From: Escherichia phage AnnaHegner_Bas87
Direction: 5' to 3' (one strand)
Length of the DNA: 64,000 nucleotides
Sequence record: PQ850594.1
Part shown: one piece after another, positions 24,390 through 51,460 of the stretch
Layout: every line of letters begins with the position of its first letter
Numbering within the stretch: position 1 is the stretch's first letter
The notes under the pieces: model-generated
The model's database searches: none
What the model was told of the DNA's origin: nothing
What the model saw: only the letters and a program-made list of their open reading frames with translations
Position numbers and translations under genes: made by a program

Positions 24390-26237
24390 TTAGTGAGTGT
24401 GATTCCAGTTTAACCCAATCTTACAGTCAGATGCCAGAGGGCATTCCATTTTGAGATACTCACCTGCTTTACGAACACACTCTTCAGTGAGGGTACGAAG
24501 TTTGTTAACATCGTCACGATGTACAGTGAACTGGCCTTCATCATGCATGTCAATAACCTTCGCACAACGAACACCATCACGCTCAATCCATTTATTAAGG
24601 AATAGCATTGCATACTTCATAACAATCGCCCCAGCGCTCTGTAAGAGAGTATTTAAGGCTTTATGAACCATAACCTTTCCAGTTGCATCTCTTCTCATTG
24701 TAATACGACGTCCATCCACACCGTAGATGTATCCACTTTGTGCTTTCTCTGTCATACGTTCAATAAGAATTGCAATACAAGGATTCTCTGCTAAGAATCT
24801 TGCCCTCATGACAGCTCCTTCATCAGAGCCACCGCCTACGATGCTTCCTAACTTAGCGTCACCAGCTCCGTAGTTGAATGCGTAGATAAATGTTTTAGCA
24901 TTATCACGAGTAGGAAGGCCAGCAAGTTTTTGGTTATGTGAGTGAATATCTCCTTCTAAAAGAATATCTCTGTACATAACAGCAGAAGCTAGACCGCGTT
25001 CAGCTTCTCGTTTCTTAGCCGGGTTGTTTTCTCGCTCTGCTTCAGCGAGCATCTCACGACACTCTTTAATAAGGTAGTGAGCTAGCATCCTCAGCTCAAG
25101 ACCAGAGCCATCGTAACCTAAGAAGATTTCACGACCAGCAGGAACATAGAACTTATAGGCACCTACAGGTTTGTCTTTCTTGCCCGGTTTTCCCACTTCG
25201 TAGATAGTGTTAGTACCCTTTCGTACGTAACACCCATCAGGGATATGGTTGGTAATGGTGAAAGGATGGTTATGACTATCGTCTGAGGAATAGTCAGATT
25301 GAAAAAGACTGCGGCACTCGTGACCAAACAAACCGCGAGAAGGAATATTAACAACAATGCGATGTTTAAAACGAAATGTCGGAGTAGCGCAGCTATTAGC
25401 TTCGGCGGACAACTTACCATCTTTACGTTCCTTGTCGATAAGCCCGCTAATCAAACCTAGCCTGTGAGCCGCTACAACGCGTCTCTTAAGCAAACTTCCT
25501 ACACCCCCTAGCTCACCCCCAAGCCCTTCTTCAAGAGTCTCCTCAAGGTTTGTAGGGGCTGTAGGCCACTTGTTTGATGTAGCCAAAGCTTTTTTGATTT
25601 CATCAAAGGTTACAGGCTTCTTCCTATTAGGGTTAAGACCTAAACCGCTGACATAGGCTTTCATATAATTGACAGTGTGATAACGGAAGTGCTTATCCAA
25701 AAACCTTCGGATATCAGCATCTATCATCTCTGCTGTCTGTTTCTCTTTAGCGTTACCTCGAATCCAAGCAGAATACCATGCAGAGTATGTACCATACTTC
25801 TTCATAGCTTTACGAATTTCAAAAGTATTCCAAGGTTTCTTAGAATAATTCCACTCTGGAGGTATAAAACCTTCATCCATCAAGGCTTCTTTAATACGTG
25901 CATCTTTTGATGGGTCAAAATCTACATACTCAACGCAAGTAAACGCCCCACCGATATCTTCTCTTTTAAGACCAACCCTATCGCAATAGAGCTGAGGCCA
26001 CTTCTGTAAAGCACCTGACTTCTTAAAAGGCTTAGCATAAGTTGAACCATCCACCCGCATTTTAGGGAGGAGAGGAATCAGTTCTTTATCAATATTGACA
26101 ATAATCTCTTTGAGAAGGTGAACAAACCACCGAGCGTTTCTTCTGTTGAAGTTGACTCCATGCTTCGCTTGTTTTGAGATTATATCAGCGACTGTCATCT
26201 CCGTTATGAAAGGTAACTTATCAGGGTTATCCATCAC
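24390..26237 (-). CDS. DNA polymerase, family A, polymerase domain only (T7 gp5-like)
   Basis: DGSGLELRMLAHY (motif A), RDNAKTFIYAFNYGAG (motif B), VIDMHDEGQF (motif C); no exonuclease domain in this ORF. Confidence 0.85.
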   Translation of the reverse strand: MMDNPDKLPFITEMTVADIISKQAKHGVNFNRRNARWFVHLLKEIIVNIDKELIPLLPKMRVDGSTYAKPFKKSGALQKWPQLYCDRVGLKREDIGGAFTCVEYVDFDPSKDARIKEALMDEGFIPPEWNYSKKPWNTFEIRKAMKKYGTYSAWYSAWIRGNAKEKQTAEMIDADIRRFLDKHFRYHTVNYMKAYVSGLGLNPNRKKPVTFDEIKKALATSNKWPTAPTNLEETLEEGLGGELGGVGSLLKRRVVAAHRLGLISGLIDKERKDGKLSAEANSCATPTFRFKHRIVVNIPSRGLFGHECRSLFQSDYSSDDSHNHPFTITNHIPDGCYVRKGTNTIYEVGKPGKKDKPVGAYKFYVPAGREIFLGYDGSGLELRMLAHYLIKECREMLAEAERENNPAKKREAERGLASAVMYRDILLEGDIHSHNQKLAGLPTRDNAKTFIYAFNYGAGDAKLGSIVGGGSDEGAVMRARFLAENPCIAILIERMTEKAQSGYIYGVDGRRITMRRDATGKVMVHKALNTLLQSAGAIVMKYAMLFLNKWIERDGVRCAKVIDMHDEGQFTVHRDDVNKLRTLTEECVRKAGEYLKMECPLASDCKIGLNWNHTH

Positions 26238-29249: not shown

Positions 29250-29558
29250 TTAGATAACCTTGTGCTTGTAGGTGTTAGGTTTGTAGTAATGCAACCAGTT
29301 TATGTGTTGCTTCTGTTCAAGGTAGTGCCTGCAATCATGACAAAAAGCATGACCCAAACCTGTTTCCTCGTTCAGCTTGAAATTGATAAGAAGCTTCTTC
29401 TTTTGACAGAAGCTACATACTTTAGTGGGCTTCACGTAGTGCGTCCCATGAGATTGGGAAAAGTTTACGAAGCTCTTCATCAACAGTTGATGCGAATAAA
29501 CGCACTTCGTATTGAGCATGGTCTGACAGACGTTGACGACACAACTCTGACCAACCAA
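29250..29558 (-). CDS. Cys-rich putative zinc-binding protein
   Basis: CSFCQKKK...CHDCRH; start uncertain because it overlaps the ThyX-like 3' end. Confidence 0.3.
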   Translation of the reverse strand: MVGQSCVVNVCQTMLNTKCVYSHQLLMKSFVNFSQSHGTHYVKPTKVCSFCQKKKLLINFKLNEETGLGHAFCHDCRHYLEQKQHINWLHYYKPNTYKHKVI

Positions 29559-30072
29559 ATAAAGACCCTGTCCACACCCACTCAGTGATCATGCCCTGAG
29601 GCAATACGAATCGAGCTTGCTCTGGAGCGATAAACTTAATCAATTCATCATACGACTCAAGAGCTGTTTCGTATGCCCGATTAATCAGAACTAGTGCAGA
29701 GTTTTGTGCTCCTGTGGTGAGGAGATTCCCCGCACCTGCATGGAGGTCCGAAGGTCTTTCAAAAATCTCTTTAGGGATGAAGAGTTCAACTGCTCCATCT
29801 TTATACCGCCGGGACATTTCGTTCCATGAGAATCCAACTTGGTGTTTATTGAGTTGTCTAGCAATTGCAATGGGAGCCTTACACCGAAAGGTGATTTGAG
29901 GGTGTCGAAAAGGAGTCACATGACGTTCCCGAGCTAAGAATTTAATCAACCGCTCGTCACGTTCGTTCAGATCACCATCTCGTGTCACACCAAAGGAAAC
30001 CCTTGCTGCATTGACCACAGATTTGTCGGAACCCATGTGCTCTACCAGTGTTGCTTTTAAAAAATCAGACAT
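29422..30072 (-). CDS. thyX: ThyX-family (flavin-dependent thymidylate synthase-like) protein with divergent signature
   Basis: overall ThyX pattern but the canonical RHR-X7-8-S motif reads KHQVGFSWNEMSRRY. Confidence 0.55.
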   Translation of the reverse strand: MSDFLKATLVEHMGSDKSVVNAARVSFGVTRDGDLNERDERLIKFLARERHVTPFRHPQITFRCKAPIAIARQLNKHQVGFSWNEMSRRYKDGAVELFIPKEIFERPSDLHAGAGNLLTTGAQNSALVLINRAYETALESYDELIKFIAPEQARFVLPQGMITEWVWTGSLFGWSELCRQRLSDHAQYEVRLFASTVDEELRKLFPISWDALREAH

Positions 30073-31888: not shown

Positions 31889-32464
31889 TTAGTAAGACAC
31901 ATCACCACTGGAGTGGGACATGTTGCTCTTGACGAAGTAACAGAACTTGCCAAGACCTTCATTAATTTCTTGAAGCATACTCTGGTCCACTGGATAGGTG
32001 CACAAGTCTGAATCAAACTCATCCATCTTCTCAATGATACACATAAGAGTCATGCACATGTCGGAAAGCATACCGTCCATGTCGAGATCAGCGTTACCTT
32101 CTCGGAACCAAGCATGGCCTAAATAATTACTAGCAGTAGCATCCACTTTAACACAATGAAAGCGCATACGCTCTGCTATTCGGTCGCCTGCCTCACGAGC
32201 ATAATCTTCTAGTTCATCGAACATACCATGAACACCTTGGAAACCAGCTCCAGAGACGTTCCAGTGGTAGTTCTTTGCTTTGATGTGTAGAAGTTCAAGG
32301 TTAGCTTGCACACCACACAAGATGTGTTCTAAGCTGTTACCGCTAATCAGTTTATTCATTCCCTCAAGACGAGAGATAGAAGAGTCAGTAGTAGAGAATG
32401 GGTTGCTAGAACCCACTCGTGTTAGTTCTGGTAAGTCGAAGACATTATTATGCATTAGGTGCAT
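31889..32464 (-). CDS. Dps/ferritin-like protein
   Basis: YHWNVSGAGFQGVHGMFDELEDYAREAGDRIAERM matches the Dps ferroxidase-site signature. Confidence 0.6.
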   Translation of the reverse strand: MHLMHNNVFDLPELTRVGSSNPFSTTDSSISRLEGMNKLISGNSLEHILCGVQANLELLHIKAKNYHWNVSGAGFQGVHGMFDELEDYAREAGDRIAERMRFHCVKVDATASNYLGHAWFREGNADLDMDGMLSDMCMTLMCIIEKMDEFDSDLCTYPVDQSMLQEINEGLGKFCYFVKSNMSHSSGDVSY

Positions 32465-33471: not shown

Positions 33472-34005
33472 TTATACACCTTTAGATGCAACTACCCCAT
33501 TGCTGCCATTGTAACGACCCTTCACTGCATAGGAATCATCACCAGCGTGAGAGTGTTCAAACATAACCATCTGACCAACACGCATCCCAGCACGAACTCG
33601 TAAGCTGTGGTTGTGGGTAACGTTATGGAATTCAAAGGTCAGCTTACTGCTGTTAAACCCTGCATCAGCCCAACCAGCATGTAAGTGGTTCAAACCACAA
33701 CGAGCCATTGAGGAGCGAAGTACAAACAGACTTGAGATGTTATCTGGAAGGTTAAACTCTTCCATTGAGTGCGCTAAGAAGAATTGTCCCGGAGTGATGA
33801 CAATACCATCTTCAGGGATTTTCACCTCTTTCCACTTGAGGTTTTCTTTAGCATCAATGTCAACAATGCCGTCAGCCTGTTCTTCAACAAGGATAGTATC
33901 ACCAATACGGATATCCACACTAGCAGCGTTAACATATTTATGCTCCGCATCTAAAAAGCCATTATCAATAACACTGTGTAATTCTTGAGAACCTAAAAGA
34001 CTCAT
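33472..34005 (-). CDS. dcd: dCTP deaminase / dUTPase-superfamily enzyme
   Basis: HAGWADAGFNS...GMRVGQMV matches the dCTP deaminase G.iDpGf...pGmri.Q pattern. Confidence 0.65.
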   Translation of the reverse strand: MSLLGSQELHSVIDNGFLDAEHKYVNAASVDIRIGDTILVEEQADGIVDIDAKENLKWKEVKIPEDGIVITPGQFFLAHSMEEFNLPDNISSLFVLRSSMARCGLNHLHAGWADAGFNSSKLTFEFHNVTHNHSLRVRAGMRVGQMVMFEHSHAGDDSYAVKGRYNGSNGVVASKGV

Positions 34006-35450
34006 GAGTTTCTGTTTCCTTGTACAGATGATGCCAAATTGTTAATCATGTTACGAGCTGTTTCACGAGTCAGCGTAACACCTGCTAAGTTACTATCAAG
34101 TTCACCAACTAATTCACGAGCTGTTGCTCGGAGTTCTGCACCAAGTGTAGTGTTAGAATGAGCCAGACCATTACGACGACCGACAGGTCGAGGAGTATTG
34201 TTAGCATCATTAGCTAAAGATGCAAAACCAATACGAGCAGCTTCACGAGCGGCTATAGCTGCTACCCGATCTTCCGTAGGGGTTGGCAAATCACCAACTT
34301 CTACACGTTCTATATCACTAGAACGTAGACCCTGAACAACAGAGCTAACTGTTTCCCATGAACGACGGGAGCGCTGCAAATCACCCATAGATGGAGAAGA
34401 AGCAGGTCGAACAGTTACTCCACCTGTATCATGAGTGACGTGCCATGTACGAGTACCCATTCCAGAAGAACGGGCACTACCAAAACTACCAGTGAAAGTA
34501 TCACGAGGTGACTCTGTAGCAGGTGCTGCGAATCTTGTCTGTTGCCAAGAGTCACGTCTGTCAGTTCCCGGAGTCCAAGGCTGCGTAATTGCTTCAGCAC
34601 CTATAGTGGTTAATCCGCTAGACCATTCTGTCTGTAGATTAACTTCCTCGTCCAGATAACTACGACCCCTTTCCTGAGGAATGTTTAATATAGTTTCCAT
34701 CATCTTCAGGGTATAATGACGACGCTGATTCTGATATAAATTTACACCAGCCATAGGTCCAACTAAATCACTAATCAGGTGAACTTCTGGCTCACCGAAA
34801 GCTCCCATTGCAAGGTGCATGTATTCAGTAGAACTGCTATAAACTGCAACAGTTGCTTCAGGCCACTTCTTGTGAACATACTTCATTTCACGACTAGATA
34901 CCACAGGAATGTCACGAGTGTATGACATTGCAAACAAACCTTCGTTTGACACATACAGATTACCAAGAGTCATAAACCCTTGACAGATCATAGGAAAGCG
35001 ACGGCTTAAAGTATCCATATCCAAAGGTAGATTAATCATCATCTGGATTTTAACTTGATCAATCTCAATTTCCAGAATCTCTTGGAAAGTGAAAAGCGCT
35101 TCAGCATAGGTTGTCCCGTTAACAGGCTGAATTAGTCGAGATGTAACCTGAAGCCCCTTACTTTCTGTCCAAGATAAGAAGTTGTCAAGGAATAGTGCAG
35201 CATTACCTACGTTAGCAGGGCTGTTTTCTTGACGAGTGTTCCAACGAAGCCCTCCTTGAACTAGGAAGATATCAACATCATTCGGAGTTCTATTTTGAAA
35301 GAACGTATCACGGATAGCACCACCTGCAATAACAGGATAGATGCCATCAGGGACTACGTTATCTCTGATCAAATTACGAATCAGGTCAAGCCCTACACTG
35401 AGGGCTTCTCCTTCTTGAAGGTTCAATTCAGATAGTGGAATCTTAATCAT
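34002..35450 (-). CDS. Pol-beta-superfamily nucleotidyltransferase (CCA-adding/poly(A) polymerase-like head) with low-complexity C-terminal half
   Basis: PVIAGGAIRDTFF...PNDVDIFLV (GG.xRD plus DxD); C-terminal ~200 aa Ser/Arg/Thr/Gly-rich. Confidence 0.5.
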   Translation of the reverse strand: MIKIPLSELNLQEGEALSVGLDLIRNLIRDNVVPDGIYPVIAGGAIRDTFFQNRTPNDVDIFLVQGGLRWNTRQENSPANVGNAALFLDNFLSWTESKGLQVTSRLIQPVNGTTYAEALFTFQEILEIEIDQVKIQMMINLPLDMDTLSRRFPMICQGFMTLGNLYVSNEGLFAMSYTRDIPVVSSREMKYVHKKWPEATVAVYSSSTEYMHLAMGAFGEPEVHLISDLVGPMAGVNLYQNQRRHYTLKMMETILNIPQERGRSYLDEEVNLQTEWSSGLTTIGAEAITQPWTPGTDRRDSWQQTRFAAPATESPRDTFTGSFGSARSSGMGTRTWHVTHDTGGVTVRPASSPSMGDLQRSRRSWETVSSVVQGLRSSDIERVEVGDLPTPTEDRVAAIAAREAARIGFASLANDANNTPRPVGRRNGLAHSNTTLGAELRATARELVGELDSNLAGVTLTRETARNMINNLASSVQGNRNS

Positions 35451-35452
35451 TT

Positions 35453-36001
35453 CTACATTTTCCAGTTGAGAGATGGGGGATTCTTATAATCAAATCCAGC
35501 CATTTGGCAAAGACACATGTAAACCTTAACTGTCAAGTTAACGTCTTGTTCACAATACGTGAACATGTCTTCAGTGAAAGCATCCCATGCTTCTTCCTGT
35601 TCACCATAGTCACCCTTCAGCTCTCCCAGAAATTCGCCCCATTGCTTGAGGCCATGACCGCGAGGTCCGTGTCTAGGGTCGCCTTTGGGATATTCTGGAC
35701 TGTCACCAATACGGTCAGGCTTGAGGTATCGACTCAGGCACAGGGTATCAAAGACATTAAAACGAAAAGGTATCACATGAGAGTAGAATTTAAACAAAGC
35801 AGGAAGGTCAAAATCAATAATATTGTGACCTATTACTACATCAGCTTCTTTCAGTTTGTGTAGTGCTTCTTCAATTTGGTGAGGGCGATACCCCCACCGT
35901 TCTCCAGACAGTACATCAAATATCCATATACACCAGACATTCTGAATACCATCATAGAGGTTATCACCTTCAATATCAAACGCATACAGTTTCTTTACCA
36001 C
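35453..36001 (-). CDS. 3'-5' exonuclease, DnaQ-like (T7 gp5 N-terminal exonuclease homolog)
   Basis: FDIEGDN (Exo I), HNIIDFDLP (Exo II), YCEQDV (Exo III); collinear with the T7 DNA polymerase exonuclease domain. Confidence 0.75.
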
Positions 36002-37785
36002 GGACGTGCCTCCCCTTCTTGTGAAAGTAAGGAAGCTGCATCTTCTCCGTTGGTGACTGTAAACGGATTATCTTCATCAACTTCATGATCTTCTCGTTCC
36101 ACAAGACGACCTGTTTCGTTAATGTATTTGGTATAGCAAACCCCTGTCTGTCCATAGTTACGCTCTTTGAGCAGACGTATGATTGACAAGTTTTTACCTA
36201 ACCCATCCGCTTGTTTATTACGTTCGAAACCGATAATACATTGACACCAGCGCATTAATGAACGTGAGCCAGTAAACTGTACTTCTTTAACCTGACCACC
36301 TTCTTCGTGAGGGGCACCGCCCGCCGGAGCATTCAAGTGAGATAACACAAAAGCAGTGAAGTCTAATTCCTTACACATACCAGCAAGCTCTGAAGCAATC
36401 TTACTGATTTCTGTATTCACTTCGGATGGAGTTAAGTGAGATACCAATGCAGTGATGTTATCAAGAATGATAAATTTACACTGATTCTCAACTACCCAAA
36501 AGCGAATACACTGCTTAATGTCTTCCCATTCGTTCTGCCCAAAGTTGTCATACAAGAAAAACTTATCAGCGTATCGAAGTGCTTCATCTCGTAGCTGGCT
36601 TTCTTCGTACTCAACATCTGGTCGGTGGAAAGGTACAGATGCTGACTTACCTGCAATGTTCTTAACAGACATGCCTACCTTCTCTTCCAAGAAGAAGCCA
36701 CCACCATTAAAACCATGCTCAAGGCAAAGCCATGCTACCAGTTCGTGTGCGATTAAGGTTTTACCTGAACCAACACCACCGCCGATTGCAACCATCTCTC
36801 CCCAACGAATACCGAAAGTCATGTCGTTAAGAGTTTTCCACGGATAAGGGATACCCCACTCCGCTTTCTTCAGAGCATCTTCAAGGCAATCAAAAACTGT
36901 AACAGCGCCGGCAGGAGATTCCCGCTTAGCTGAATATTTCAGATTGTTGAAAAGCTCTTGACCTCTCCCTGCAAGTAACATGTCGTTTGCATCTTTGATT
37001 TCCTTTTCTTGTCCGTTATAAGTGAACGTACCTTTTGGAATTCTTGCAAACTTGACATGTGGGTACAGAGAACGACCTTTAGTCAATGCAATCTCTCCTG
37101 CATCATCATTGTCCATGCAGAGTACAATCTCCTCGAAACCATTAATAAAATCACGATTTCTTGACAACACAGAAGAGATTGAACCTGCACCGAACGGAAG
37201 AGAGACACAAGCAGGTTTGATATTAGTTGCGTTTGTGAACGCAGTAAGTACGTGGAATCCAGACATACAAGAGAGTGGGTCTTCGAAGATGAAGAGCTTC
37301 TTATTGTAAACATCGCCACGTTGTGCTTGAGCCATACCAAATAAGTCGGCTTCTTTCACATTACCTACATAATAGAACTTCTTGCTGTCTAGAAGTTTTA
37401 CTTCATATCCAACAATATTCCCATCACGTTCACGAGGGAAGAAGTAGCTGTCAGGAGTTTGACCATCTGTTTGGCTTAAACCGATACGGCATCCATAACG
37501 TTCAGATACAGCTTTAGGAATTAAGCGACGAGTCAACTCTCCCTGAGGAAGCTCTAAGCAATCGTCTAAGACTTCTCGGAGTTCTTCAGGGGACAGCTCT
37601 TTCTTTTCATTAGGAGTGGGCGTCGTTCCTTTCTCGAAGATTTCATACGCACCACATCTGTTACATGAACCCCACTCCTCACCGGACTCTTCATTTCGGA
37701 AGAGAATCATGTGATTGCGGGTCTTATCACGACCATGAGAGATACACTCTTTACAGCCTGTGTCTCCCAAAATGATCTTTGACAT
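35995..37785 (-). CDS. primase-helicase (T7 gp4-like)
   Basis: N-terminal zinc ribbon CKEC...CNRC, TOPRIM region, DnaB-type Walker [10 protein letters not shown]. Confidence 0.85.
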
Positions 37786-38962: not shown

Positions 38963-40198
38963 TTACAGAGTTACTGCTACTTCGCTACCTTCAACATTGA
39001 CAGACTCTAACTTGCGAGGGTTATGAATCTGTACCGGATTAACCGGAACGTTCCAACCACTACGGTAGAAGTTACGACCATCACAGAACAAAATGACATT
39101 GGCAGACATTGCATTCGGTTGCAGGTTGTTATGGACATGACGGATATCTGCAATCCAATAACCACGAGACAAAGTGTAACCAGTAGGTGCATTACGAATA
39201 GTTTGAGTATTCATCTGACCTTCCAGTTGCATCTCTTCAGGAACTACATCTACCGAATCAACTGGCTGTGCTACCTGATCTTCCAGTGCAAAGTTTTCAT
39301 CATTAGCGCTTTCGCTGTCATCTACCAACTCACCGTCTCCATCTTCAATCGGAGTCTGGTAAACCACTTTATACTGAGGAGTATAGAGAGGGTTCTGAGC
39401 TTTAACAAACTCAAGGATGTTATGGCGGTAGGTATCCAGAGTTGTACCAGTCAGGCCCGGTGCTGTATTAACTTCCAGTACCCACGCTTCTTGACCTTTG
39501 GTGATAATATCAACTGCACCGAAATCCAGACCCATTGATTCAACAGCTTTCACCGCATTGATCAGAGAGGCGTCATTCGGAGCATCTGTGAAGGAGCTTG
39601 AGTAAACCCAGCCAGTGTGGTGATTACGAATATCTTCACGATAGTTAGGGTCTTCGCGATAACCATTGCGACGAATCTTCTTCTGAACATAGGTGATTAC
39701 ACCTTTGAACACATGGACACGCCACTCACGACGTGGGCCTTGAATGCCTTTAGTGTACAGTTCAGCTCGACCAAGACCATCACCCGGTTCTACAACAACA
39801 ATACCCGAACCAGAGTGACCAGTCAGCTCATGGCGCTCATACACAATATTACCAGTGTTTGACCACTCCTGAGCAGTCTCTTGAACATCTGTGTATTCCA
39901 CAGTTTTAACACCTGCTTGGTCCATCACACTGAAAGCACGACGTTTGTTCGCTGCCATATATAAGGCTGCGGTACGGTTAAGGACGGTTGCAGAACCAAA
40001 GAATGATTCAGGATAGCGACGGTTCCCGTAGTTAACAACCACATCACCTTCACGAGAACGCCAGCGGCTATTCTCTGAAAGAAGACCCATCACGTTAGCA
40101 TTGATGCGTTCATCACGGATAGTATCACTGATAGCAGATACTAGAGCGTTAACAGAATCAGACGGGCCATACGGAAGAACACGGATACGAGTAGTCAT
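38963..40198 (-). CDS. ATP-grasp ligase (RimK/glutathione-synthetase-like) with C-terminal extension
   Basis: EWRVHVFKG ... AWVLEVNTAPGLTG matches ATP-grasp nucleotide-binding strands. Confidence 0.65.
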   Translation of the reverse strand: MTTRIRVLPYGPSDSVNALVSAISDTIRDERINANVMGLLSENSRWRSREGDVVVNYGNRRYPESFFGSATVLNRTAALYMAANKRRAFSVMDQAGVKTVEYTDVQETAQEWSNTGNIVYERHELTGHSGSGIVVVEPGDGLGRAELYTKGIQGPRREWRVHVFKGVITYVQKKIRRNGYREDPNYREDIRNHHTGWVYSSSFTDAPNDASLINAVKAVESMGLDFGAVDIITKGQEAWVLEVNTAPGLTGTTLDTYRHNILEFVKAQNPLYTPQYKVVYQTPIEDGDGELVDDSESANDENFALEDQVAQPVDSVDVVPEEMQLEGQMNTQTIRNAPTGYTLSRGYWIADIRHVHNNLQPNAMSANVILFCDGRNFYRSGWNVPVNPVQIHNPRKLESVNVEGSEVAVTL

Positions 40199-40200
40199 TT

Positions 40201-40431
40201 TTAGATACCTTTTAGTTTAAGAATTTCGTTACGACAGGATTGAATTTTAGCTTCGATTGCCCAATACTCAGCGAACATTTCGTCTTCTTGGGCATCGCTT
40301 GGAGAGTCAATTAAGTTAAAAGCAAACGGATACAGCTTTCGCTGCTCCGTTACCAGTTGTTGAAGTCGGAGTTGTTGATACTCCAGCATTGTCAGGTGAG
40401 GCTTAGCTCCCTTGCTTGACATGAGGCTCAA
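40201..40431 (-). CDS. hypothetical small protein in ligase cluster
   Basis: ORF only. Confidence 0.35.
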   Translation of the reverse strand: MSLMSSKGAKPHLTMLEYQQLRLQQLVTEQRKLYPFAFNLIDSPSDAQEDEMFAEYWAIEAKIQSCRNEILKLKGI

Positions 40432-40636
40432 CTTTAATCCCCTTCATTTTAACATAGTCAGCCAACACGTTATTGATAACGGTTGGAAAAGGGATTTCTA
40501 CTGGAGAGTCAACCAGCTTCCCAATACCTTCTTGCATCCACTTCTGGATTGCTCGGAGGTTATCACATCCTGTGCTTGTCATCGGAATACGGCGGGTAGT
40601 TACCACGTTATCCAACATCAGTTTACGAACTTCCAT
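40403..40636 (-). CDS. hypothetical small protein in ligase cluster
   Basis: ORF only. Confidence 0.35.
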   Translation of the reverse strand: MEVRKLMLDNVVTTRRIPMTSTGCDNLRAIQKWMQEGIGKLVDSPVEIPFPTVINNVLADYVKMKGIKVEPHVKQGS

Positions 40637-40647
40637 AACTATACCTC

Positions 40648-42681
40648 TTAGTGTTTACCTTTACAGTAATCTGAATTACAGATCACCCTGTTTTCTTTGT
40701 TCAGTGAGCAAGTTTCTGCATCACGCCACGGAATTTGTTTATAACAGACTGCACAAAACCCAATTGAAGTCCAGAGGGCTTTTGTAAACTCAGCTGTTCG
40801 TTGTCCATCGTAACTGACAACTGTTTTTCGGAGAGAGGTTGACTTTTCTGGAAATGTCTCCGCTTTCTCAGCGGGTACCTCCTTTGGGGCATTCTTTGGA
40901 CCATAAACAGAGATGGCATAAGTATCACCACCACGTTTTTCCAAATACGAATTAGGAACATCTGCAAGTGTGATGTCCCCTGAACGTTTTGCTGAGCTGA
41001 CCATTACAATCATACGGCTAAGCATACGTTCATCAACACGAACAGCTACTTCAGGACGACGTGGGTTGGTTGTGTCTACTGCTTTAGTCCAAATATAACC
41101 TTCAGATAGAGTAACATTCTTTACTTTATCTTTGATTTCTTTGGAGCAGATATAACAAACGTCTTCACCACGAAGTTTACTCATTTCGTTGTCAAACTCG
41201 AAATCAGTCTTGACTTCACCACAGATAGCACATACACCCAAAGGCACATCTTCTTCCTCTTCAGAGGTTTTAGATAACGCTTCGAAGCATTCTGGATGCC
41301 AGTATGCCTGATAAGCAAACACAGCCTTACGAGCATCTTTCCAGTCAATGTGCTTATCACAACCACCACAGTCACCATGAGAGTGAGATTCCCAGAACTT
41401 ACGAGTGACTTCTACACCATTCTTAGTGATGAAGGAGTCCTCTGCATCAAAAGGGATATCATCATCAAAATCAGCAGTAGTGCTTTGAGGCTCCTTATCT
41501 GTAGCATCAACAAACAGCCCTGAAGTTAGTACGAGGCGAATCATACTGTCCACTTCGGAGATACAAGCGATTGTCCCGCGATATACTACCTTTGGGTTTT
41601 CAAGAGCCTTAAGATATTCATCTTTGGCTACGTTGTGAACATCCCCTTCGACATACTCTTGGGCTTTATCATCGTAGATGTAACCAACCATCTTACCACG
41701 ATCTGTGTTGTTATAAGCATGGAACTCGTGAGGAATAATATCCACACGACCATCACGACGATAAGGAAGACCACGATCGGCAGCCAGTTTGTTCTGGTCT
41801 TCAATCGCTTTACGACGACGAATGTCTCCGCTTGTCACGCCGGGCTTGTCGTCTTTGTTTCCGTAAATGTCGCTTGTGCTGCTGCTTGGTTTGTTTGTCT
41901 GTTGGTTCTGATAAAGAGAGGAGTTCGAGTAATAGCCGCCCCAGCGACTCGTTACCGTAAAAACCGGAAGCTTGTGCTCCACCTCTTGAACCAGAGTCAT
42001 ACGACTGTTAGACACATCAAAGATATACTCAGTTCCCACTTTACACTCGAAGTGGTCATTGATACGGTTCTTGTGGGATTTAGAACGCTCTAAAATCCAC
42101 ATAAGCATAGCTTCTTCAGAAGCCCCAAACCAATCCAAACCACAGCGGGCTAGGTGGAAAGGACGCTCATCATTACGGATAATGTGAAGCGTGTTGTCTT
42201 TAGCATCATGCCAAATCAAAGTGAATGCACCATCCAGTTTTTGGATAGTCTCTGCTGCTCCAATGGTGTTAATTGAGTGGCAGATGTTTTCACTATCAAC
42301 TTCGAAACGCTTACTGTCAGGAAGGAGATCTTGATCTAACAGGGTTCCATTATGAACCAGAGTAATATCCCCGTGAGTAAATGGGTGAGCATTTCGAGCA
42401 TTGACAGCCCCACGAGTGGCATGTCGGCTGTGACCAACAATCCACGAAGGAGGAACTACGTAGTTCGTAAGCCCTTTGGTAATATTTGTATATTCTGTCT
42501 GGAGCATAAAAGCATAAGAAGGAAGAGCTTCTTTATAAGAGAAGACTTGCTTTTCACCTTTACGCTGACCAAACACACCAGTTGAGTGCTGTCCACGGAA
42601 AACACCAGCATACAGAAGTTGGTTGAAAATGTCCAAATCTGCTGAGGTCATGTTGCCGCCAGCTAATACGATACCACAAAT
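40648..42681 (-). CDS. class II glutamine amidotransferase / Ntn-hydrolase-fold protein fused to Cys-rich C-terminal domain
   Basis: GATase-II signature (RGQHSTG, HSRHATRG, HNGTL); upstream in-frame ATT-TGT-GGT-ATC-GTA supplies the CGIV nucleophile, so start set to ATT 42679-42681 with AGGTGG RBS. Confidence 0.65.
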   Translation of the reverse strand: MCGIVLAGGNMTSADLDIFNQLLYAGVFRGQHSTGVFGQRKGEKQVFSYKEALPSYAFMLQTEYTNITKGLTNYVVPPSWIVGHSRHATRGAVNARNAHPFTHGDITLVHNGTLLDQDLLPDSKRFEVDSENICHSINTIGAAETIQKLDGAFTLIWHDAKDNTLHIIRNDERPFHLARCGLDWFGASEEAMLMWILERSKSHKNRINDHFECKVGTEYIFDVSNSRMTLVQEVEHKLPVFTVTSRWGGYYSNSSLYQNQQTNKPSSSTSDIYGNKDDKPGVTSGDIRRRKAIEDQNKLAADRGLPYRRDGRVDIIPHEFHAYNNTDRGKMVGYIYDDKAQEYVEGDVHNVAKDEYLKALENPKVVYRGTIACISEVDSMIRLVLTSGLFVDATDKEPQSTTADFDDDIPFDAEDSFITKNGVEVTRKFWESHSHGDCGGCDKHIDWKDARKAVFAYQAYWHPECFEALSKTSEEEEDVPLGVCAICGEVKTDFEFDNEMSKLRGEDVCYICSKEIKDKVKNVTLSEGYIWTKAVDTTNPRRPEVAVRVDERMLSRMIVMVSSAKRSGDITLADVPNSYLEKRGGDTYAISVYGPKNAPKEVPAEKAETFPEKSTSLRKTVVSYDGQRTAEFTKALWTSIGFCAVCYKQIPWRDAETCSLNKENRVICNSDYCKGKH

Positions 42682-42758
42682 TTTCTAATCCACCTGAAGG
42701 GTAAACCCTTTCATCTAATTAACCTTTAAATGCGCCCTGTATAAGAGCGCCCGTTGTG

Positions 42759-43859
42759 TTACAGTAGTCGTTCTAATTGCATTTCCAGATGGTCTGGAAT
42801 ATAACCAGTGACGTTATCATCACTGCTACCTGATTCACGCATCAATGCAAACATGTGACGAATTTCACGAACCGTTGCGATTCGAGTGCTTTCAATCTGA
42901 GGGGTGTAGTAGGTCATGATCTCTTCGTAGACACTGTTGGCATTACCGCGCACATATCCCAAGAAACCATAGAAGTCATTCATATCACGTAAGTTGATAA
43001 GGACTTCACCATCAGGGCCAGTCTGTTGCACACGAACACGACCAACCAAAGTCACAGATTGCTCACGACAGAAGAGAATATCACGAGCAAGACGATACCC
43101 TTCAGTGAGATCACTGTCTCTTGGAGTATAGTCTAGGGGTAGATGTTGAATCATAGGAGCGAAGCGCAGCTCATTCAACTTCTCAACATAAGCTTCATTG
43201 TCTAAATCTGCATATTCAACAGCCAGTTTCTTGAGAACCAAGAAGCGGTTGACCAGATTCAGAAGTTGGCTCTTTTTCCACTTCGGCTCTGAGATACGGA
43301 ACTCAACAGAACCAAATTGAGATAGAGGCAAAAGATTAAGGGAGGTATATTTATCCCAGCTATTAACAAGAGAGTGGAAGAAAGCTTCCCCGTCTCGGTT
43401 GAACGCTGACGAAGCATTCATAACTTGTGCTTGAACGACAGCAAAAGCTGGACAGAAGTTGCTACGATAGCGATGGTATCCAGAACATTTGAACATCATC
43501 TTTTCATAGAACGTCCATCCAAGAATAACTTTCTTAAGGATGTTACTATCAGCGTCACGCATATCCATATGAACATGAGTGGAGCAGCGCCAAGTTCCCT
43601 CGGCTCCAGAATCCTGTACTGCTTCACTCAGATTGTTAATAGCACGAAGTAATTCTTCACCGTTGTAAGGTCGTGCACATACTAATTCACAACCATCACG
43701 AAGAGAGCCATCTTCAGTACAAACCCACATATCAGCGTCAATGTCAGTTGTACCTTCGACTTCTAACTCAATACCAACACCACACTGAAAAGCAATACTT
43801 GGATGCGGTTCAGATAAGCGAGGGTTACGGTATCCAAAAACTTGTGCTACGGTTGTCAT
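42759..43859 (-). CDS. glutamine-synthetase-like amidoligase (GCS2/YbdK-like carboxylate-amine ligase)
   Basis: GVGIELEVEG N-terminal acidic strand and STHVHMD His motif. Confidence 0.55.
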   Translation of the reverse strand: MTTVAQVFGYRNPRLSEPHPSIAFQCGVGIELEVEGTTDIDADMWVCTEDGSLRDGCELVCARPYNGEELLRAINNLSEAVQDSGAEGTWRCSTHVHMDMRDADSNILKKVILGWTFYEKMMFKCSGYHRYRSNFCPAFAVVQAQVMNASSAFNRDGEAFFHSLVNSWDKYTSLNLLPLSQFGSVEFRISEPKWKKSQLLNLVNRFLVLKKLAVEYADLDNEAYVEKLNELRFAPMIQHLPLDYTPRDSDLTEGYRLARDILFCREQSVTLVGRVRVQQTGPDGEVLINLRDMNDFYGFLGYVRGNANSVYEEIMTYYTPQIESTRIATVREIRHMFALMRESGSSDDNVTGYIPDHLEMQLERLL

Positions 43860-44482
43860 AATGATTCCACCAACTCTACATTATATGATGACAGGTCTGA
43901 AGAAATATGCTTGAACTTCTCCAGAAGGTTTAAAGATTGACGACCATTGTCGCCATAACCAGCTTCAAGAAGCACGTTTCCAACGTAAGCCCCTTTGTAA
44001 TAAACTTTTCCATCGACAGGATTGATATAGATGAAACGAGTAACCAACCCTTCAAACTCTGGATTAAACAGGTTGTACACCAAATCACCCGGAATCGAAC
44101 GTCCGAGAGAAGGTGGAGTACCACGAAGTTTATTCCCCATCAAGCCTTTAGCTCGCTGACGAACAGGGTTGATATGGGTCCAGCTCACCATGTTATTACC
44201 ATGCTGAAGGTATCCTACATCTGGAGACTCCAGAATGAGGCTGTGATCAAACACTGGGATATTACTAACAATCTGACGTTCAAACTGACCTTCGGAGTTT
44301 TTAGTCCAGCGTTCCGCCTCAAACACTAAAGACATTTCAGCGTCGTGTGAGTAGTCGTCAATATCAAAGTTACCTTGCTGACGAACATCAAGCACATATA
44401 GAGGGAGGTTTTTACCATCAGGTGATCGCTGGGCAATCCATGTTCCACAATAATAGTGTTGAAAATCTCTTAACAAGCTCAC
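43856..44482 (-). CDS. hypothetical protein in ligase cluster
   Basis: ORF only; overlaps neighbours by 4 nt. Confidence 0.4.
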   Translation of the reverse strand: MSLLRDFQHYYCGTWIAQRSPDGKNLPLYVLDVRQQGNFDIDDYSHDAEMSLVFEAERWTKNSEGQFERQIVSNIPVFDHSLILESPDVGYLQHGNNMVSWTHINPVRQRAKGLMGNKLRGTPPSLGRSIPGDLVYNLFNPEFEGLVTRFIYINPVDGKVYYKGAYVGNVLLEAGYGDNGRQSLNLLEKFKHISSDLSSYNVELVESL

Positions 44483-44491
44483 AATATCACC

Positions 44492-45298
44492 TTATACAAT
44501 CTGGAGTTTAGAGGAGAATTTATCCGCTTCTTTAACATCGTTACTGTTGATGATGTTGTGAAGCTTTTCAATTGGAAGGCGAGAATGAAGTGACATCAAT
44601 ACTTCCATATCACAGCCTTGAACAACCTTATCAACTTGCTCATAAACAAACTTGCGGGTTGACTTCTCGCCAATCCAGAAGTTAGAAAGAGAACGATATT
44701 CAATACCGTAATCTTTGTAGCGAATGGCAGAAGCCTTTCCGTATAACTCTTTACGACGAGTGTCTTTATCCATGATCACAGCTGGCAAGGACAGGAAGTA
44801 ATCACACAACACACCCAACATCATTTGAGTCTGACGACTAATTTCCAGCGTACCAGTGACGCCAAGGTGAACATGACCGCCAGCAGTACGCAGACCTTTG
44901 TCTGTCGCTACTGGAGATGGGTTTTTCTGACCAGTGAAGGCGTTGAAATCAGGAGTACAACCAAATACAAAAGCTGACGGGTGGAATGATTCAAGCTCTT
45001 CTGAAGTGAACACATGAGAGCTAATCCCAAGCGCTGCTTCCAGACCACGATCATTCAGGATTTTGTTAGTCAGATCAATACCACGCTGAATATTATCATC
45101 AAACGCTTCAAATCCTTTCTGTGGGTTAATATCGAATTCAGCCAGAACGTTGTCTTCTTGAAGACGAACATCAGGGGCCAGATCAATTTTGTTGTCTTTA
45201 GAGCAGCCCAGCTTACCAGCCACAGAGGTGATAATACCAGAAGCAGTACGAACAAACATTTCAGGGTCAGAACCAATAAGGAAAGCACGCTTAGTCAT
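44492..45298 (-). CDS. second amidoligase-like protein (weak)
   Basis: start moved to internal Met (MTKRAFLIGSDPEMF); GSDPEMF acidic strand and GGHVHLGV motif. Confidence 0.4.
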   Translation of the reverse strand: MTKRAFLIGSDPEMFVRTASGIITSVAGKLGCSKDNKIDLAPDVRLQEDNVLAEFDINPQKGFEAFDDNIQRGIDLTNKILNDRGLEAALGISSHVFTSEELESFHPSAFVFGCTPDFNAFTGQKNPSPVATDKGLRTAGGHVHLGVTGTLEISRQTQMMLGVLCDYFLSLPAVIMDKDTRRKELYGKASAIRYKDYGIEYRSLSNFWIGEKSTRKFVYEQVDKVVQGCDMEVLMSLHSRLPIEKLHNIINSNDVKEADKFSSKLQIV

Positions 45299-46241
45299 TG
45301 TAATACTCCACGAGTTCATCAAAAAGGGAAACAACACGAGCACCAGCTTCTTCTGGTGTCATTGAGGAAGGTACTGCTTGCATCAGTCGTTCGATAAAAC
45401 TGCGAACAGTGATTCTGTCCATACGCTGATCTAATACTTCTCGCTTGTGACCTGCACAAGTTGACCAGAGACGCAACCACTCACTCATACTTTCATAATG
45501 GTCAGGGTCTTGGTCACGACGGCGTGCCATACGACGGAGAACTCCATCATTATGGTTTCGTACATAACCATCTCGGTTATCATCAACACCGAACACATTC
45601 TGAACCCATACGTTTTCAGAAAATTCATCAGTGGTGCAAATTAGTGGCAGAAATGCAATTGCACTCATGTCACCATCAAAATAAGTCGCTGCTGACTCAT
45701 CGGTTGAGTCTACGTCATTACTATAACACCAGCGACCAAAGAAGTTACGACTTAAACCAGCTAAGCGTAGAGCTAAACCGATTCGTTGTCGCTTAAGCAA
45801 CTCTTCCTTGTCTTGTACGCCTTCCTGAAGGAACTCCATTCCATTAAAATCACCATCCAAATAACTACGGATGGTCATTAGTCCAGTAAACACCTTGTCT
45901 GCTGGATGGTTTCGAAGGTTCACGGCAATGGAGTTCACCGAAGTGACAGAGAACATATCTTTATAGCAAGACATTGAGTTAAAAATGTCTGTTGCTTCAA
46001 CTAAAGCTCTTTCGATATCTTTAGCCGGCACGCCATAAAAATTGTGAGGCCAGAAGTTAATAACTTCAATTTCTGAAGTTCTGTCACGAAGGCTTGTTCG
46101 GTTACGACTTTCACCGTTAATGTCTGTAACAGAATACATGTGCATACAGTTAAAAGTACCAAAGCAAGCTCTTCCTTTGAACACTGACTCACCGAAATCC
46201 TCTGCCGGTGTTACCGGAGCAATCGATGCGGAGATTGACAT
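45291..46241 (-). CDS. hypothetical protein in ligase cluster
   Basis: ORF only. Confidence 0.4.
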   Translation of the reverse strand: MSISASIAPVTPAEDFGESVFKGRACFGTFNCMHMYSVTDINGESRNRTSLRDRTSEIEVINFWPHNFYGVPAKDIERALVEATDIFNSMSCYKDMFSVTSVNSIAVNLRNHPADKVFTGLMTIRSYLDGDFNGMEFLQEGVQDKEELLKRQRIGLALRLAGLSRNFFGRWCYSNDVDSTDESAATYFDGDMSAIAFLPLICTTDEFSENVWVQNVFGVDDNRDGYVRNHNDGVLRRMARRRDQDPDHYESMSEWLRLWSTCAGHKREVLDQRMDRITVRSFIERLMQAVPSSMTPEEAGARVVSLFDELVEYYND

Positions 46242-51384: not shown

Positions 51385-51460
51385 TGGTGCACCCTACAGG
51401 ATTCGAACCTGTAACCAACGACTTAGAAGGTCGCTGCTCTATCCATTGAGCTAAGGGTGC
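51385..51460 (-). tRNA. tRNA-Arg (anticodon UCU), with encoded CCA
   Basis: cloverleaf folded by hand: 7 bp acceptor stem GCACCCT/AGGGTGC, D-arm GCTC/GAGC, anticodon loop CUUCUAA, T-arm ACAGG-TTCGAAT-CCTGT. Confidence 0.85.

Follow-up and report, generated by a model that had tools for sequence, protein, structure and literature searches.

Within the 64,000 nucleotides of Escherichia phage AnnaHegner_Bas87 that we analyzed (sequence record PQ850594.1; hereafter the window), an open reading frame at 34002..35450 (-), running from an ATG start to a TGA stop, encodes a 482-aa protein with a nucleotidyltransferase (NTase) domain at its N terminus. The frame is complete, matching the family phrog_12715 over its full length (E=6e-169), and an earlier note made from the sequence alone had placed it at exactly these coordinates, reading it as an enzyme with a head like that of CCA-adding enzymes and a long tail. 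A 'nucleotidyltransferase' or CCA-like label is already public in GenBank, RefSeq, PHROGs, and two papers. What our analysis adds is that the protein fails the tests for a CCA-adding enzyme, that it is placed beside Gad2 (Gabija anti-defense protein 2) and the small NTases of podophages, and that its anatomy comprises, from the N terminus, a core of 280 aa, a linker of variable sequence, and a conserved module at the C terminus.

The source phage belongs to the Gordonclarkvirinae, the phiEco32-like prolate podophages. The window is 99.4% identical to OliverMaurmann_Bas86 of the BASEL phage collection and shares 90-94% identity with Suseptimavirus phages such as ECBP2, SU7, IME267, and EK010. 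Orthologs of the NTase include Bas86_0066 (labeled 'nucleotidyltransferase'), phiEco32 gp73 (437 aa), SU10 CDS74, and a 426-aa protein of EP335. When 1.84 billion representative proteins were searched exhaustively by profile, 24 clusters of the phrog_12715 family passed E<=1e-30, and 30 passed E<=1e-10; the domain is N-terminal in all family clusters found, while total protein length ranges from 274 to 482 aa. In the record of phage vB-EcoP-XT32, the ortholog is divided between two annotated proteins, P0024 and P0035. P0035 begins with the FP..C motif, and its C-terminal end is a hydrophobic stretch translated out of frame from the tail region, which suggests a frameshift or a sequencing error in the record.

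The catalytic signature that had been recognized from the sequence, the GG.xRD and DxD motifs of Pol-beta-superfamily NTases, is present and invariant in the family, with GGAIRD at residues 43-48 and DVD at residues 58-60. Together these make up motif A (GGAIRD...DVD, residues 43-60; 35271..35324 (-)), which aligns with the GGAVRD..DvD of CCA enzymes in the PDB and is predicted to provide a glycine-rich NTP-binding turn and two metal-binding aspartates, D58 and D60. Across 28 family representatives, the residues G43, G44, R47, D48, D58, D60, F62, Y115, I125, Q136, P153, Y191, and K195 are invariant (28/28), and positions 96, 124, and 188 are Asp or Glu in every sequence (28/28). E124 lies on a predicted beta-strand adjoining the strand that bears DxD and is, in the structural model, a candidate for the third catalytic carboxylate. 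The ratio of nonsynonymous to synonymous substitution rates (dN/dS), calculated here and below over seven Suseptimavirus orthologs, is 0.02 for residues 1-70. With GG..RD and DxD intact and position 124 always acidic, the enzyme looks catalytically active.

Structure prediction, hhalign comparisons, and conservation agree in defining a class II type NTase head with the first helix that follows it at residues 1-215 (34806..35450 (-); dN/dS 0.02-0.12). In addition to motif A, this region contains E124, Q136, a degenerate motif B at F152-P153..C156, and a helix carrying R187-E188..Y191..K194-K195. It is followed by a family-specific helical subdomain at residues 216-285 (34596..34805 (-); dN/dS 0.12), which emerges from the alignment, is predicted with a local distance difference test score (pLDDT) of 84-94 when the alignment is deep, and closes with the conserved motifs F/L-x-(I/L)-P and [NQ]-[WYF]-[ST]-x-G-[LR] (W276, L280). 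The shortest family members stop ~10 aa past this subdomain. Its residues 237-285 seemed disordered with a shallower first alignment and became ordered once the alignment was deepened. In the AlphaFold2 (AF2) model built on the 28-sequence alignment, residues 1 to ~280 fold confidently (mean pLDDT 87.3, predicted template modeling score (pTM) 0.85), and the folded core is thus ~280 aa rather than the N-terminal domain of ~120 aa that the earlier note had delimited.

The 42 best Foldseek matches of the protein in the PDB are all class II CCA-, CC-, or A-adding enzymes, with E values down to 1e-5. The prediction therefore recovers the head of a class II CCA enzyme and not an unrelated fold, and we assign the head, as modeled, specifically to the class II tRNA-NTase/poly(A) polymerase (PAP) type. 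Identity as a CD-NTase or a member of the MNT family was rejected: the structural scores fall below those of class II NTases, and there was no PADLOC or Pfam match. The head is acidic, with an isoelectric point of 4.9 and a net charge of -7.

Beyond the core, residues 286-482 form a tail whose composition agrees with the earlier description of a Ser/Arg/Thr/Gly-rich, likely disordered C-terminal region of ~200 aa. Arg accounts for 12% of its residues, Ala, Thr, and Ser for 11% each, and Gly for 9%; Ser, Thr, Gly, Arg, Ala, and Asn together constitute 59% of the tail versus 36% of the head, and the tail is predicted with a pLDDT below 50 in the full-length AF2 model. The term 'low-complexity', by which the tail had also been described, is less apt, because no tandem repeats were found in the tail and its entropy in 15-residue windows is just slightly under that of the head (2.97 versus 3.19 bits); 'compositionally biased, probably disordered' would be a more accurate characterization.

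The tail is heterogeneous, with residues 286-440 differing from residues 441-482. The former constitute a predicted disordered linker rich in Arg, Ser, Thr, Gly, and Ala (34131..34595 (-); pLDDT <50, dN/dS 0.30-0.45), divided into a hypervariable segment with indels at residues 286-345 (dN/dS 0.45, 19 gap columns) and a segment at residues 346-440 with a dN/dS of ~0.3. The latter form a conserved C-terminal module (34005..34130 (-); dN/dS 0.16, no gaps) that is near-identical across the seven Suseptimavirus orthologs, and helices are predicted here at low confidence for residues 435-455 and 462-477.

The in-frame indels, together with a dN/dS of 0.34 for the tail as compared with 0.09 for the head, indicate that the tail is translated and under relaxed purifying selection. 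The possibility that the tail is a mis-called or frameshifted reading frame was rejected: the frame is intact in 7/7 phages, dN/dS is <1, stop codons interrupt the other two sense frames 10 and 25 times and each antisense frame between 3 and 15 times, and the SU10 ortholog, from which one peptide was identified by mass spectrometry, is listed at its full-length mass of 50.9 kDa (PMC4281155).

Between genera, tails range in length from 0 to ~200 aa and cannot be aligned save for short motifs, and sequence-database searches found no homologs of the Bas87 tail beyond its orthologs. The linker carries a short conserved aromatic motif, F320-x-x-S-F-G, the general form of which, F-x-x-[AS]-[FLW]-G, recurs in other genera, and aromatic residues are scattered along the tail. 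Arg is the sole basic residue type, and a strongly cationic RNA-binding arm was rejected as a description of the tail because its net charge is just +2. Inspection by eye found neither a clamp-binding motif (QL[SD]LF) nor an SSB-tip motif (DDIPF) in the tail. We infer that the tail is a flexible tether with short docking motifs. As a separate observation, the C-terminal residue is F, W, or Y in 10 of the 28 family representatives (..SDISF, ..TTWDW, ..RRFNF, ..GGWTF), corresponding to a binomial p=1.4e-4 against a background of 9.4%, with the proviso that the sequences are not independent. Aromatic ends of this kind resemble the C-terminal docking tips of replication proteins; the Bas87 protein instead ends in ..GNRNS.

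In regard to the CCA-enzyme-like character attributed to the head, the fold and motif A bear it out, whereas motifs B and D, the body and tail domains, and the curated family models do not. The class II tRNA NTases and PAP I (1MIV, 3H37, 4WBY, 1OU5, 3AQL) have in common with the phage protein the Pol-beta-type head fold and a motif A of the form GGxxRD-x9-DxD, and the phage family keeps a post-head helix corresponding in the alignment to where the neck begins. However, the structural alignment with class II enzymes spans just 137-168 residues. The neck, body, and tail domains that grip the acceptor and T arm of tRNA were not found, as nothing past the head and one helix is shared; the phage protein is without the body, the tail, and most of the neck, and adds the 216-285 subdomain and a predicted disordered tail of ~200 aa. 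The Pfam model PolyA_pol (PF01743) did not match the Bas87 protein at E<=1, its orthologs reached only 13.5-21.5 bits against a gathering score of 23 bits, and the NCBIfam CCA/PcnB models likewise gave no match to the Bas87 protein but noise. Direct searches with the protein returned zero matches in Pfam and zero in PADLOC, and phmmer against the PDB returned one spurious match. Profile searching, which had been suggested as a way to choose among CCA-tRNA NTases, MNT proteins, and CD-NTases, thus yielded no match by Pfam, NCBIfam, or PADLOC.

The motifs responsible for nucleotide selection also differ. In class II enzymes, motif B reads the ribose of the incoming NTP, and the Asp and Arg of motif D (EDxxR) template CTP and ATP. 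The equivalent of motif B (RRD-F/L-T-I-N) in the phage family appears to be R-R-F152-P153-M-I-C156, so that the family reads R-F-P for RRD, with Pro at the Asp position in 28/28 representatives; this mapping runs via the small phage NTases and Gad2, which retain D-F-T-[IV]-[CN] like the RRDFTIN of PcnB. The equivalent of motif D is R187-[D/E]188-x-x-Y191-x-x-K194-K195, for which there are two possible registers. In one, the acidic residue is retained and the invariant Tyr stands at the position of the templating Arg; in the other, neither residue is retained. Tentatively, then, the templating Arg of EDxxR is lost in both registers. Comparison of the family by hhalign with E. coli Cca and PcnB, each as a single sequence, aligned motif A alone or nothing meaningful, and when a hidden Markov model (HMM) of the small NTases was used, motif A was again the only part of the E. 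coli enzymes to align.

The phage does encode its own tRNA, as the earlier note had pointed out. This tRNA-Arg(TCT), the sole tRNA in the window (51385..51460 (-)), reads the rare AGA codon, and its 3' CCA is encoded in the gene; furthermore, the E. coli host has its own Cca. Because the body and tail domains and any PolyA_pol match are absent, the motif B Asp is replaced by Pro, the motif D Arg is lost, the head is acidic, and the tRNA gene encodes CCA, we conclude that the gene product is, judged by its sequence, not a canonical CCA-adding enzyme.

These results bear directly on the function first proposed for the gene, repair of tRNA 3' ends, in which the enzyme would restore damaged CCA ends, whether on the phage-encoded tRNA-Arg or on tRNAs of the host, and the Arg-rich tail would bind tRNA in place of the body and tail domains. 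The best structural matches are indeed CCA-adding enzymes, motif A is typical of them, the phage carries a tRNA gene, and relatives are labeled 'tRNA nucleotidyltransferase' or 'class II CCA-adding enzyme domain' in databases. In addition, tRNA-targeting defenses exist, including the OLD nuclease family of Gabija's GajA, and a CCA-like repair enzyme could therefore act in counter-defense. Nevertheless, the missing neck, body, and tail, the invariant Pro in motif B, the unconserved Arg of motif D, the lack of a PolyA_pol match, the acidic head, and the availability of both an encoded CCA and a host Cca lead us to consider tRNA repair unlikely, and relatives of the enzyme occur in small T7-like phages, many of which are without tRNA genes. 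The other option raised at the outset, nucleotidylation of another target, fits the evidence better.

Alternatively, the protein may be an RNA 3'-tailing enzyme, similar to a poly(A) or poly(N) polymerase, that marks host or phage transcripts for decay or stabilization. PAP I also depends on a basic, poorly structured C-terminal region, and a related NTase is toxic on over-expression. Yet the score of PAP I barely exceeds those of the CCA enzymes, the absence of the neck and of intact motifs B and D counts equally against this reading, the tail is only weakly basic (net +2), and the gene lies in a DNA-replication block, not among transcription genes. We regard RNA tailing as very unlikely.

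Relatives closer than the CCA enzymes are found among phages. Over the whole library, the family profile weakly matched many proteins of 170-250 aa (E 4e-8 to 1e-3). When the family core was compared by hhalign with an alignment of 30 small phage NTases, the match was strong (99.6%, E=1.2e-23) and extended over 154 columns, corresponding to residues 22-203 of the Bas87 protein. Homology to these small, head-only proteins (phrog_1614 / phrog_4400 / phrog_10174) is therefore clear over the head and first helix, and phrog_1614 matches the Bas87 protein at E=5.7e-6. Fold matches in BFVD with E values from 1e-9 to 1e-4 include small NTases of LKD16, LIMEzero, PP2, Ninurta, phiAS7, and Lullwater as well as ICP1 ORF223. 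The alignment of the 30 small NTases in turn matched the human CCA enzyme TRNT1 (E=1.3e-5) over the head, motif B, and motif D, which was the sole long alignment to a CCA enzyme. Small phage NTases, found in Autographiviridae and other phages, are variously labeled 'nucleotidyltransferase', 'tRNA nucleotidyltransferase', 'PolyA polymerase head domain protein', and 'Gad2 family', and papers place them within T7-like replication modules. The Bas87 family differs from them in being longer (274-490 aa), with the 216-285 subdomain and a variable tail, and in having Pro for the motif B Asp as well as its own invariant residues Y115, Q136, Y191, and K195.

The same group of small NTases provides a connection to Gad2, a predicted NTase that phage SPbetaL7 needs to escape Gabija. 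The SPbetaL7 Gad2 gene is toxic when expressed in bacteria, and its mechanism is listed as unknown in a 2026 review. Gad2 (PF26128; SPbetaL7 ORF_159 and a Brevibacillus laterosporus homolog) is likewise phage-encoded and has the same type of NTase head. We assembled Gad2 sequences from the paper's supplement and a database search, among which P0204 equals the SPbetaL7 protein over the quoted stretch bar one residue. By hhalign, the family core matched the Gad2 alignment at E=1.1e-4 (probability 56%) over 111 head columns, Gad2 residues 15-129, and the two groups have in common the local motifs AGGAI.., NDVDI(F/Y)F, (I/L)Q(M/L)(M/I), and F(P/D)..C.G. An HMM made from Firmicutes Gad2 only gave the Bas87 protein 5 bits and several intermediate small NTases 36-68 bits. 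Precomputed matches to PF26128 'Gad2' exist for P0036 (unmarked), the Kuravirus ortholog P0023 (weak), and P0034 (weak), and for none of the Bas87 type; a tblastn search against phages with P0036 returned a single irrelevant match. Both Gad2 (phrog_18122) and the Bas87 protein (phrog_12715) match phrog_1614.

Gad2 also has features of its own. It reads GGxITS for GGAxRD, retains the motif B Asp (FDFT), and has a folded C-terminal domain of ~200 aa (~residues 200-400) that is not present in the Bas87 protein. Moreover, Gad2 is encoded in a variable anti-defense locus of temperate Bacillus phages, whereas the Bas87 gene belongs to a syntenic core of lytic coliphages. In these profile comparisons, the Bas87 family is a sister group of Gad2 proper and not a member of it, and the link is clade-level and transitive.

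Other NTases of this superfamily, including MenT/AbiEii, MNT, and CD-NTases/OAS, have the same fold with DxD catalysis, and some of them act on tRNA acceptor ends or on proteins. One may ask whether the Bas87 protein nucleotidylylates a protein, in the manner of AMPylation by MNT or GlnE, or makes a small nucleotide product such as a signaling or decoy nucleotide, in which case the Ser/Thr/Tyr-rich tail may be a self-substrate or docking element. An acidic head is atypical of nucleic-acid binders, and the toxicity of SPbetaL7 Gad2 in bacteria would also be compatible with such an activity. Set against this, MNT/GlnE-like families score clearly under class II tRNA NTases, neither PADLOC nor Pfam matched the protein to MNT, AbiEii, or CD-NTase, and every enzyme characterized in the closest branch takes an RNA 3'-OH as acceptor. 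A protein or small-molecule product is, in our view, highly doubtful.

The genomic context of the NTase is conserved. It is a core gene of a replication and nucleotide block organized as a tightly packed minus-strand operon. The block begins with a T7 gp4-like primase-helicase (35995..37785 (-)), followed by the 3'-5' exonuclease subunit of a split family A DNA polymerase (35453..36001 (-)), the NTase, and a dCTP deaminase (33472..34005 (-)). The stop codon of the exonuclease gene is 2 nt ahead of the NTase ATG, and the NTase stop and dCTP deaminase ATG overlap (ATGA). Further downstream are a Dps/ferritin-like protein (31889-32464 (-)) and the flavin-dependent thymidylate synthase ThyX (29422-30072 (-)). 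Metagenomic relatives whose NTases are only 22-33% identical retain the order primase-helicase, polymerase exonuclease, NTase, dCTP deaminase, Dps, thioredoxin, ThyX. Exonuclease and NTase are direct neighbors in distant relatives too, and in L004 and L006 the two genes overlap by 4 nt. This gene order is broken only by homing HNH genes (L004 9036-9524, L005 3390-3878, L018 1680-2015), one of which lies between the NTase and dCTP deaminase genes and one inside the primase-helicase gene, splitting it.

The polymerase subunit of the split family A enzyme (615 aa, PF00476) is encoded at 24390-26237 (-), placing the exonuclease and polymerase subunits in separate genes ~9 kb apart. On the other side of the block lies a phiEco32-type amidoligase cluster (38963-45343 (-)), which is kept beside the replication block in distant relatives as well. 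It comprises a RimK-like ATP-grasp protein (38963-40198 (-)), a class II glutamine amidotransferase (40648-42651 (-)), an Amidoligase_2 protein (42759-43859 (-)), and a COOH-NH2 ligase (44492-45343 (-)). In Bas86, a gamma-glutamyl cyclotransferase gene adjoins that of the primase-helicase.

This setting invites the idea that the NTase is a component of covalent DNA modification or anti-restriction, nucleotidylating DNA or a modification intermediate. The Gordonclarkvirinae were reported in the BASEL paper to be strongly resistant to restriction-modification (RM) with no known modification pathway, and its authors point to the pair of dCTP deaminase and NTase (PMC11990801). The position of the gene within a block for replication and nucleotide metabolism is in keeping with their suggestion. 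The window also contains sites for EcoRI (11), EcoRV (18), and EcoKI (8), and site avoidance therefore does not explain the reported RM resistance. On the other hand, ThyX, a dNMP kinase, and the dCTP deaminase are together fully accounted for by an ordinary dTTP supply, and we saw no genes of the hydroxymethylase or DNA-kinase type. To our knowledge, a class II NTase head does not feature in any pathway of DNA hypermodification. We consider a role in DNA modification improbable. The dCTP deaminase as a sign of deoxyuridine-containing DNA was rejected separately, since ThyX and a dNMP kinase are present. Other sequence biases of the 64-kb window include the complete absence of CCWGG (Dcm/EcoRII), for which ~70 sites are expected from base composition, a deficit of GATC (129 observed versus 287 expected), and no SacI, SalI, or BamHI sites.

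Taken together, our preferred reading, to which we assign somewhat less than an even chance, is that the protein is an active, phage-specific, 'minimal class II' NTase that is not CCA-adding and that serves phage replication or counter-defense, with its tail as a tether. D58, D60, and E124 would hold two metal ions, and the enzyme would transfer a nucleoside monophosphate to a hydroxyl group, with an NTP or dNTP as donor. This acceptor would most likely be the 3'-OH of a nucleic-acid end, by analogy with every characterized member of this branch of the fold. Sugar and base selection would be unlike that of CCA enzymes, given the Pro in place of the motif B Asp and the loss of the templating Arg from motif D. 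The predicted disordered Arg/aromatic tail and the C-terminal helices would tether the acidic core to a partner, either nucleic acid or a replisome or host protein. Biologically, such an enzyme would shield the replication of phage DNA from interference by the host, or aid it, through Gad2-like counter-defense or end modification, rather than rebuild tRNA ends.

Several points weigh against this proposal. The Gad2 link is transitive and weak for the Bas87 protein itself (5 bits, no precomputed Pfam match), and the C-terminal domain of Gad2 has no counterpart in it. Anti-defense genes are usually accessory and variable, and a syntenic core gene argues instead for housekeeping in phage nucleic-acid metabolism. 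Because the head is acidic and the tail carries a net charge of just +2, nucleic-acid binding is not obvious. The equivalences for motifs B and D come from remote profile alignments, with two registers possible for motif D. Finally, the disorder of the tail is predicted from a shallow alignment, and part of the apparent disorder could stem from this.

A more far-reaching proposal, which we consider quite unlikely, is that the enzyme forms the catalytic center of a hitherto undescribed mechanism that protects the Gordonclarkvirinae. In one version, it would be a terminal transferase, tethered to the replisome, whose substrate is either the ends of phage DNA or a defense or repair protein. If true, linear replicating genomes would be hidden from the end-sensing Gabija and RecBCD systems and perhaps from restriction enzymes, and this would also show how Gad2-type enzymes work.

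The annotation of this gene is not new; its biology is open to direct testing. In a common yet little-studied group of E. coli phages, represented in the BASEL collection (Bas86-93), the gene is part of the core and well expressed, and it belongs to the widespread small phage NTases that are routinely mislabeled 'tRNA nucleotidyltransferase'. Gad2, which blocks Gabija, is the only relative to have been functionally tested. A representative from an E. coli phage, with its clear active site, clean genetics, and distinctive tail, would offer a route to the targets of these NTases and to Gad2-type counter-defense.

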